From an uncultured Candidatus Peribacteria bacterium (lineage in GTDB: Bacteria > Patescibacteriota > Gracilibacteria > Absconditabacterales > Absconditicoccaceae): a stretch of 64,000 nt of DNA. A model generated the notes under the pieces. That model had not been told where the DNA came from, did no database searches, and saw only the letters and a program-made list of their open reading frames with translations. Shown here piece by piece: positions 25,731 through 31,769 of the stretch. The stretch covers positions 487-64,486 of the forward strand of contig CAZIVH010000002.1 in the NCBI GenBank assembly GCA_964542965.1. The letters are read 5' to 3'. Numbering within the stretch: position 1 is the first letter of the stretch; each line of letters starts with the position of its first letter. A program made the translations under genes and the position numbers.

Positions 25731-29522
<3,792 letters not shown>

Positions 29523-29624
29523 ACGATTATCTGTGATAAGAAAATAAACAATGAATATTAATCTATGCGTTGGTATTCAAACATTTTCTTCATCCAAAAA
29601 CAAAAAAATTCAAAAACCGTAGGG

Positions 29625-29780
29625 TTACGATCTTTGAACAGTCAATTGTTTTCTGCCTTTTCTTCTCCTTCTGCTCAGCAACGCCCTTCATCCGGCTGTT
29701 TGCATTCTTTCTCTGAATCCATGTTTGGTTATTCTCTTCCTTCGAGAATATTTTCTCACCCTTCTTAATTTACTAGCCAT
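29625..29780 (-). CDS. rpmH: 50S ribosomal protein L34
   Basis: MASKLRRVRKYSRRKRITKHGFRERMQTAG-[TGA 29688-29690]-RALLSRRRRKGRKQLTVQRS. Too short for, and split in, the standard-code track. Confidence 0.85.
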
Positions 29781-29820
29781 CGTAGTATACTGTTAAATGG
29801 TAAATTCCTTTTTGGTATCA

Positions 29821-29877
29821 GGTAGAAGGTGAAAGGTAGAAGGCCTCGTCCCTTATCCCTGTTTATTTATCCCTTAT
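29821..29877. repeat. Heptad arms (GGTAGAA/GGTGAAA vs CCCTTAT) between rpmH and the S6/S18 gene
   Basis: ggtagaaggtgaaaggtagaagg cctcgt cccttatccctgtttatttatcccttatt. Confidence 0.4.
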
Positions 29878-29879
29878 TA

Positions 29880-30446
29880 TTATTTCTTATATTCCACGAA
29901 TCCGAGTTCTCTCGCTCTCAACACAACAGTCTTAAGCTTTTTCTGTGTGGATACTGGATTATTTGTATATGCCCTTGGTTTGATATCACCAAACCTTGTT
30001 ATATATTTTTTGAGCATCGCTACTGACTTTCGGTTAAGATATTTTTCATTTTTCTTGTCAGCGAAAAAAGCAACCTTTTGTCAAAGTTTCTTAGGATCCC
30101 GTGAGTCTATGATGGTTTTGAGTTCATCATTTACCTTTGCAAACTTCAAAAACTCTTCGTTCTTATCCATCTTGAAGATGTAATATCTCTTGATTGCCTT
30201 ATTATACAACAAATTCTTTTTGATTACATCCAAATCTTCGGCTTCTGCCTGAATATAATATGAATACACATATGCCTTGTCATTTCAAGACTTATTGCTC
30301 AAATTATACATTAGTTGCTGGAGTCCCATATCGTCCTGATCGACGATAGTTTTCTTGATGAGCTTTTCAAATTCAGAAACCGTTTCTTTGCGGTTAGTCT
30401 CTGATAAAGACGCATCAACCAACAACACTACATCATACTTTTGCAT
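29880..30446 (-). CDS. rpsF/rpsR: Fused 30S ribosomal proteins S6 (N-terminal) and S18 (C-terminal), 188 aa
   Basis: Hand translation: MQKYDVVLLVDASLSETNRKETVSEFEKLIKK...GLQQLMYNLSNKS-G-NDKAYVYSYYIQAEAEDLDVIKKNLLYNKAIKRYYIFKMD (S6-like). Then ...DPKKL-[TGA 30081-30083]-QKVAFFADKKNEKYLNRKSVAMLKKYITRFGDIKPRAYTNNPVSTQKKLKTVVLRARELGFVEYKK (S18-like). One frame; no ATG is available for a separate S18. Confidence 0.7.
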
Positions 30447-30473
30447 GAGTTTACTTATGTAAGGTAGTAAAAA

Positions 30474-31274
30474 TTACGATCCGATAGCCATTCTAACAAA
30501 CGCAATGACTTTCATATCAGCTGGCAAGATTTCCTTTACTTTTTTAGCGCCATCCCTGATATATTCCTGTTCCAAAAGGACAAAATCAGCCAACGTCTTT
30601 TTGATTTTTCCATCGACAATCTGAGCAATCATAGCTTCAGGCTTTCCTGCAGCCTTGAGTTCGGCTCAAAACTCTTCTTTCATCCTTGCTATTTCATTTT
30701 CATCCACTTGTTCAAAAGACACATAGGTAGGATTCATAGCAGTCACTTGCAATGCCACTTCCTTGGCCGCTTCATCATTTCCTCATTCGAAGAAAATCAA
30801 TGTAGCTACCTTATTTCCTGGATGATTGTAGATATATGCTTTTTTACTTGTTACCAACACTCCTCCAATCTTCATATTCTCTCCTGTCTTGCCCATAAAT
30901 TCTTTCACTTCATTTTCTACCTCTTCAGCTATTGCAGGATCAAGATGTTCTAAAGCAGATATTTCTTTGTCTCCCTGCGCAATCTTATTGAGTACGGAAT
31001 CAAACAACGCTTGGAAATTTTCATTTTTAGCGACAAAGTCGGTTTCACACAAAAGCTTCAGTCCAACTGTTTTACCATTGAGCTCCGTTATCTTGACAAT
31101 ACCTTCTTTGGTCTCTCTTTCTGCTCTACTTCCTGCTTTCGCGATACCCTTTTTTCTAAGCACTTCCTGTGCCTTTTCCAAATCATCTCCTGCCTCAGCC
31201 AATGCTTCTTTACAATCTTTGAGGGGAGCAAAAGTGATATCTCTTAGTTGTTTCAATAATTCTATGTTTGACAT
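30474..31274 (-). CDS. tsf: Elongation factor Ts
   Basis: MSNIELLKQLRDITFAPLKDCKEALAEAGDDLEKAQEVLRKKG (UBA-like N-terminus). Track ORF 30783-31274 is extended through 2 TGA to TAA 30474; gaps checked. Confidence 0.85.
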
Positions 31275-31277
31275 GAG

Positions 31278-31303
31278 AATAATGATAAATGATAAATGAT
31301 ATA
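31278..31303. repeat. Tandem heptad AATGATA x3 between tsf and the upstream membrane-protein gene
   Basis: aataatgataaatgataaatgatata. Confidence 0.4.
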
Positions 31304-31307
31304 TTGA

Positions 31308-31769
31308 TTATGGATTTTTCTGTTGGGGAATCTGTTGTTTCTCAGATTCTTTTTCCTCCTTGATTTCGAAGAGCGTCATAATCCATCCTCATAGAGCATA
31401 GAATATCGCTAACTTATTTTCTTCGGCTATGTTGTATTTTCCGTCTCGAGCACGCTTGATAAATATTCCTAGGAATATCACCATGATAATCACAGCAAAG
31501 ATGGGGATATATTTTATCAATGGCAAGAGCATCATTACAGACGTCGCAACGATCAGAAGAAGGAAGACCGCTCGCCATCACAACGATTGTTTGAGATGAA
31601 AGGTTTCAAAATCATTCTTTTTCTGATTATTGAGTGCGACGACAATGATACCTATAAGAAGATACATCATCACTGCTCTCTTTTTCTCCGTACTACTAGG
31701 GATATACGCCTCTGTGGAAGCTTGAGCCGCCGTCTGAACGACCGCTTCTGGCATTTTTGTTTCTTCCAT
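31308..31769 (-). CDS. Small integral membrane protein (153 aa)
   Basis: Track ORF 31578-31769 extended through 2 TGA. Several hydrophobic spans: MMYLLIGIIVVAL, AVFLLLIVATSVMMLLPL, IFAVIIMVIFLGIF. Confidence 0.5.

Follow-up and report, generated by a model that had tools for sequence, protein, structure and literature searches.

The window analysed here is a 64,000-nucleotide stretch of a draft metagenome-assembled genome (67 contigs, 1.10 Mb, 90.8% complete) from an uncultured Candidatus Peribacteria bacterium that GTDB places in the Absconditabacterales. On its minus strand, positions 29880-30446 form one frame of 188 codons plus TAA when read with table 25 (ATG at 30444-30446, TAA at 29882-29880); under table 11 this frame is interrupted solely by two TGA codons, which are residues 54 and 122 of the 188-residue protein (P0001). 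A preliminary description of this DNA, which gave no strand, had proposed a single 188-residue frame with an S6-like half followed by an S18-like half, and the analysis agrees on both counts: Pfam Ribosomal_S6 (PF01250) matches residues 3-92 over its full model (1-90; E 1.5e-10, 41.5 bits for a cut-off of 27) and Ribosomal_S18 (PF01084) matches residues 138-183 (E 5.7e-9, 36.4 bits for a cut-off of 21), so that both domains of this fused rpsF-rpsR gene lie above their gathering scores. The bS6 domain spans residues 1-96 (30159..30446) and the bS18 domain residues 123-188 (29883..30080); between them come a linker of 25 residues (97-121; 30084..30158) and the junction codon, a TGA at 30081..30083 that encodes Gly122. 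The other TGA, at 30285..30287, is Gly54 within the S6 domain, and a standard glycine codon stands at the same column in four relatives (L024, L026, L027 and L029). The junction reads ...DPKKL-TGA-QKVAFF, as already described, and the stretch across it in the fused protein is ...DPKKLGQKVAFF....

The gene belongs to the string tsf-[S6-S18]-rpmH-rpoB, all on the minus strand. The upstream neighbour, tsf (EF-Ts; 30474..31274; Pfam EF_TS, E 3.1e-48), is separated from it by 27 nt only; downstream lie rpmH (L34; 29625..29780; Pfam Ribosomal_L34, E 4.6e-13) and, after it, rpoB (25731-29603). The canonical operon is rpsF-ssb(priB)-rpsR(-rplI), with an rpsF leader that binds S6:S18 (PMC4647458). Here, in contrast, ssb (contig C30) and rplI (contig C6) are both away from the fused gene, in keeping with the earlier remark that neither lies between or after the two halves; the upstream spacer is short, and an Rfam scan of 29500-31500 matched no family, the S6:S18-binding leader included. 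Across the order, rpoB comes after rpsF/rpsR-rpmH in nearly all of the 141 genomes that we sampled; the S6/S18-rpoB linkage is thus order-wide and differs from the canonical rplJL-rpoBC arrangement. Within the same ribosomal gene string, between rpsB and tsf, a 153-aa ORF (31308-31769, minus strand) has no Pfam match and is judged, by the look of its sequence, to be a probable membrane protein.

Both halves are divergent members of their families. The NCBIfam equivalogs score under their cut-offs (38.9 against 42.9 for S6, TIGR00166; 29.8 against 38.75 for S18, TIGR00165) because the lineage has diverged. Solved bS6 chains in the PDB align to residues 1-96 and bS18 chains to residues 122-186, so that the second TGA falls exactly between the two regions of homology. 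About 50 PDB bS18 sequences match, the best with E 3.8e-5 over residues 122-186; residues 12-75 of Bacillus subtilis bS18 align to this same region, and the S18 half starts at the counterpart of residue 2 of a free S18. Ten residues are invariant in 33 fused sequences (K140, R151, F152, K156, P157, R158, Q168, K169, R177 and R179), the last of which, by alignment to the Escherichia coli sequence, we take to be R63 of E. coli S18. R63 is named as an rRNA-contact residue in E. coli S18 (PMC4647458). A six-frame search of the 1.10-Mb genome returned one S6 locus and one S18 locus, both here; the separate rpsR gene that would have spoken for unfused proteins was thus looked for genome-wide and not found, the only further signals for a second rpsR or rpsF being weak, sub-threshold S18 matches (E 0.05 and 0.18). 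The complete, single-contig fusion carriers G141, G089 and G090 gave no match to a second rpsR or to prfB either. Because it is the sole S6 homologue in the genome, we infer that the fused protein functions as S6 in the 30S subunit.

An AlphaFold2 model built on the 33 aligned fused sequences reached a mean pLDDT of 89.4 and a pTM of 0.84, with no segment below 50. Such a pTM for a two-domain chain means that the halves are placed confidently against each other, and the predicted chain forms one compact unit. In Foldseek comparisons the modelled S6 half superposed on bS6 chains (e.g. 9i5x_b, 9fy1_f and 3j9w_AF) with a TM score, normalised to the target, of 0.86-0.89 and an rmsd of 1.6-1.8 Å, which confirms the S6 alpha/beta fold at the level of the model. 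The linker, homologous to the tail of unfused S6, is predicted to form a helix at 102-115, and the softest stretch of the chain is 116-130 (pLDDT 72-78).

Whether the frame is open depends on the meaning of UGA, on which several observations bear: (i), among the tRNAs of the genome is one of 74 nt with anticodon UCA, whose pairs G1-C72, C2-G71 and G3-C70 and discriminator U73 are the glycine identity set. (ii), of the class-I release factors the genome has RF1 alone (444 bits, cut-off 400); RF2 was not detected in the assembled genome, where the only match to the prfB model was the RF1 gene itself (257 bits, cut-off 370). (iii), the neighbouring rpoB carries 8-9 in-frame TGA codons, and those at RpoB positions 707, 736 and 946 align with glycines invariant in five relatives from other families, none of which has a TGA in rpoB. 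Together, these observations indicate that UGA is read as glycine in this genome, with no assembled factor expected to terminate there. They match what is described for genetic code 25 of SR1/Gracilibacteria, in which UGA is glycine (Campbell et al. 2013, as cited in PMC9297842), and database relatives carry the name Candidatus Absconditabacterales. While the code itself is identical, the new point is a UGA glycine codon at the junction of a gene fusion.

The preliminary description had suggested comparing related rpsF/rpsR loci, and the comparison recovered the same architecture well beyond the window. In all 30 genomes of the genus, the window's own counted, residues 1-188 are matched collinearly, with 55-98% identity; in G005 the match is cut by a contig end. 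Within the order, sampled as one family of 141 genomes and 43 genera, a single fused ORF occurs in about 95 genomes from 18 genera, down to 33% identity; 47 of these loci were inspected directly, codon by codon. S6 and S18 have a gene each in 25 of the order's genera and in other families of the class; 336 genomes from other families gave no match to the fusion at E<=1e-12. Substitutions across the fused relatives (33-98% identity) keep the frame and the core residues. Many relatives (e.g. G022, G023, G155, G144, G066 and G089) have a fused gene without any TGA, so that these versions can be read through with the standard code as well. Closed, single-contig genomes with the fusion are G141, G089, G090 and G070. 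The pattern is that of a Rosetta-stone fusion, with separate genes in relatives and one uninterrupted, conserved ORF here. We regard it as a genuine fusion in nature, conserved and recurrent, between two ribosomal proteins that are neighbours, and the locus in the window very probably encodes one genuine chain made of a bS6 core, an S6 tail serving as linker, a UGA-encoded glycine and bS18. The covalent fusion put forward in the preliminary description is in this respect well supported by the single copies of both domains, the 18 genera, the TGA-free versions and the exchange of TGA for GGN at the junction.

The origin of the fusion can be approached through the layouts of the two genes. In layout C, rpsF-ssb-rpsR, ssb lies between the genes (9 loci, by tblastn), and the canonical order is thus kept in basal Absconditabacterales; in layout B, found in about 20 genomes, rpsF and rpsR are adjacent but separate, with a TAA or TAG stop for S6 and a spacer of 20-160 nt; layout A is the fusion. 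An RpoB tree (66 rows, IQ-TREE LG+C20, quick search, rooted on the five genomes from other families) places layout C in basal branches and layout B in a derived clade. Layout A occupies a 21-row clade that includes the window's genus (support 100) and is also found in g26/g32/g37, in G124 and, apart from these, in g34+g48. The layouts on this tree show a succession in which ssb left rpsF-ssb-rpsR, the two genes became adjacent and fusion followed. Forcing all 30 fused rows into one clade cost 102 log-likelihood units and was rejected by an AU test (p 2.5e-5), so that at least two fusion events are required within the Absconditabacterales; the 25 fused rows that include the window and leave out g34+g48 could form one clade at no cost (p 0.53). 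The junctions are of two types, in agreement with at least two events: ...KK[LFY]-G-QKV..., of fixed length, in the window's clade, and longer acidic linkers ending ...VRKGYFNK... in the fusions of g34/g48.

G055 is the nearest relative in which the two genes are unfused. Its S6 ends ...FAESFQPKKI-TAA, a 32-nt spacer follows, and S18 begins MKKKNIFQDAENLQY. This S6 end is homologous to ...IIDSRDPKKL-TGA of the fused gene, whose product continues as ...SRDPKKL-G-QKVAFFADKKNEKY: a whole S6 with its tail, one codon, and S18 from residue 2. The alignment identifies the linker as the old C-terminal tail of S6 and shows a single glycine codon in place of the stop, spacer and start of the unfused pair. 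A single transition turns TAA into TGA, and the junction TGA may derive from the S6 stop codon. Four unfused relatives (G156, G092, G067 and G130; loci L062, L067, L073 and L130) have rpsF and rpsR in the same frame; one stop codon, TAA or TAG, parts the two, along with a spacer that is open over 10-22 codons, and these genes are one point mutation short of fusion.

The surroundings of S18 in the ribosome have also changed in this order. bS21 (PF01165) was not found in the 90.8%-complete assembly, and its absence has been reported for the group (PMC9297842). The source assembly yielded no 16S rRNA, 28 tRNA genes only being detected; in the relatives examined, CCUCC is absent from every 16S 3' tail, whichever of the three layouts the genome has, and the anti-Shine-Dalgarno cores are degenerate (CCUCU, CCUUU, CUUUCC, CCACCC and CCAUUC; L146-L150; in G044, G041, G089, G141 and G047), which is consistent with PMC10783764. 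From these two losses we conclude that the platform and mRNA-exit region is remodelled order-wide. Loss of the anti-Shine-Dalgarno core was considered as a cause of the fusion and rejected: CCUCC is missing under all three layouts, with no correlation with fusion. Being order-wide, this loss is at most permissive, and the remodelled platform may have been permissive for tying down the N-terminus of S18.

A broader proposal can be built on these observations, namely that the reassignment of UGA to glycine eased the fusion, a change of the S6 stop from TAA to TGA being enough to give a glycine codon, and that recurrent fusion then amounted to an adaptive re-engineering of the 30S platform, in which the loss of bS21 and of the anti-Shine-Dalgarno core would free the S18 N-terminus from the role it usually has. 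The TGA found at most junctions, aligned with the TAA of G055, and the four same-frame unfused relatives are consistent with a code change that eased fusion; taken as a whole, we nevertheless hold this proposal to be unlikely.

The junction codon also bears on whether the locus makes one protein or two, through occasional termination at UGA, internal initiation of S18 or cleavage of a precursor in the linker. Among 34 relatives of the clade, this codon is TGA in 22, GGA in five, GGT in three, GGG in two, and AAT and TTA in one each; since 12 of the 34 thus have GGN, AAT or TTA, it is a sense position rather than a programmed stop. The 22 TGA codons do lie exactly where unfused relatives have the S6 stop. 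The preliminary description had allowed that, if UGA were now and then read as stop, free S6 and the fusion might be made side by side in programmed fashion. That part of it did not survive: the only release factor found is RF1, which does not read UGA, the glycine-type tRNA(UCA) is there to decode it, and TGA is absent altogether from several of the genes. The locus also departs from a programmed readthrough or dual-product gene in that RF2 was not found and the junction is not conserved as TGA. An independent S18 start was likewise rejected. Across 23 members of the genus, residues 91-150 contain no conserved ATG, GTG or TTG save Met codons inside the domain cores; no more than 10 of the 23 have GTG at codon 125, which is GTT in the window, and the next ATG past the junction, M144, is within the S18 core, as expected from the earlier remark that S18 has no plausible start of its own. 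Cleavage would find a suitable place in the loop 116-130, where the model is least confident, and the conserved KK-L-G-QK motif could be a processing site. Conservation of the frame, the interchangeable junction codon and the lack of a conserved start together argue against a programmed stop and an internal start, and one gene giving two proteins by any of the three routes seems to us quite improbable. That the frame reflects a sequencing, assembly or gene-calling error, or a pseudogene with functional genes elsewhere, is a thought invited by the draft, 67-contig state of the source genome but vanishingly improbable, and effectively refuted by conservation across relatives: neither chance nor assembly error would place the same collinear ORF in about 95 independent assemblies, closed genomes among them, with frame and core residues kept across 33-98% identity and no other S6 or S18 in the assembled genome, and the junction gave no sign of the assembly error that the preliminary description had raised.

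We return to the probable single S6-S18 chain. S6 and S18 are the textbook pair of ribosomal proteins that must join before rRNA binding. Dimerisation comes first, and the heterodimer then binds the S15-16S complex (PMC4647458, where Held 1974, Agalarov & Williamson 2000 and Recht & Williamson 2001 are cited); the preliminary description, too, had taken as established a heterodimer that binds the 16S central domain cooperatively. Compared with the canonical bS6:bS18 heterodimer (e.g. the S15-S6-S18-rRNA complex, PDB 1g1x), both domains are recognisable here and the S18 core is invariant; however, they are part of one polypeptide, S18 has neither its own start codon nor a free N-terminus, and the C-terminal tail of S6 has become an internal linker. 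We propose that a single chain is made in which the bS6 core and the pre-existing S6 tail are followed by a glycine, inserted by tRNA-Gly(UCA), and by bS18 from its second residue. This chain would fold as the S6:S18 unit that other bacteria build from two chains, and the pre-formed unit would then bind 16S rRNA at its central domain, already primed by S15. The fusion would hard-wire both 1:1 stoichiometry and dimer formation, and would guarantee the 1:1 ratio where the usual leader-based feedback of the operon is lost; stoichiometry may thus be set by the fusion instead of by translational feedback.

The fusion carries several implications. It indicates that the 30S platform tolerates a tether from the S6 C-terminus to the S18 N-terminus in 18 genera and with at least two origins. 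Studies of how ribosomes assemble, and of how they may be engineered, could use the fused protein as a model supplied by nature, and the layouts document a stepwise collapse of the rpsF-ssb-rpsR operon into a fused gene in reduced genomes. Other co-functioning polypeptides encoded in one ORF, with separate genes in relatives, are known from Rosetta-stone and ubiquitin fusions. The eukaryotic ubiquitin-ribosomal-protein fusions (eS31, eL40) undergo cleavage, and their ubiquitin half is no ribosomal component; here, in contrast, both halves are structural ribosomal proteins and direct neighbours.

In the literature that we searched, we found neither a description of an S6-S18 fusion nor an earlier case in which two ribosomal proteins of bacteria are fused; the sole related remark in PMC9297842 is that bS6 is 'large' in CPR. 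Public databases have recorded the protein under names assigned automatically. JGI calls these proteins 'ribosomal protein S18/ribosomal protein S6', NCBI has '30S ribosomal protein S6' or 'S18' of Candidatus Absconditabacterales, and UniRef names K1YI79 'bS6'. Where pipelines label the fused protein S6 or S18, the other half can seem missing, which matters for marker-gene sets and when the completeness of candidate-phyla genomes is estimated.

About 17 fused clusters were recovered from a set of 1.84 billion representative proteins. Three of them (P0169, P0172 and P0201; L143-L145) come from organisms without sense TGA; they are unrelated singletons, each on one or two contigs, with both Pfam domains present, and may be independent fusions outside the order, or artefacts. 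P0169 is found on two Logan contigs, after mutL, and P0201 on a 34-kb JGI contig. P0172, whose source looks gammaproteobacterial, is followed by rplI-dnaB with priB missing; it may be an artefact, its contig being covered only 2x and containing further split genes. The S6 half is also matched, over residues ~22-74, by two long proteins, P0113 (2733 aa) in 12 separate stretches and P0196 (755 aa) in 5, which could reflect a repeated S6-like module or a compositional match.
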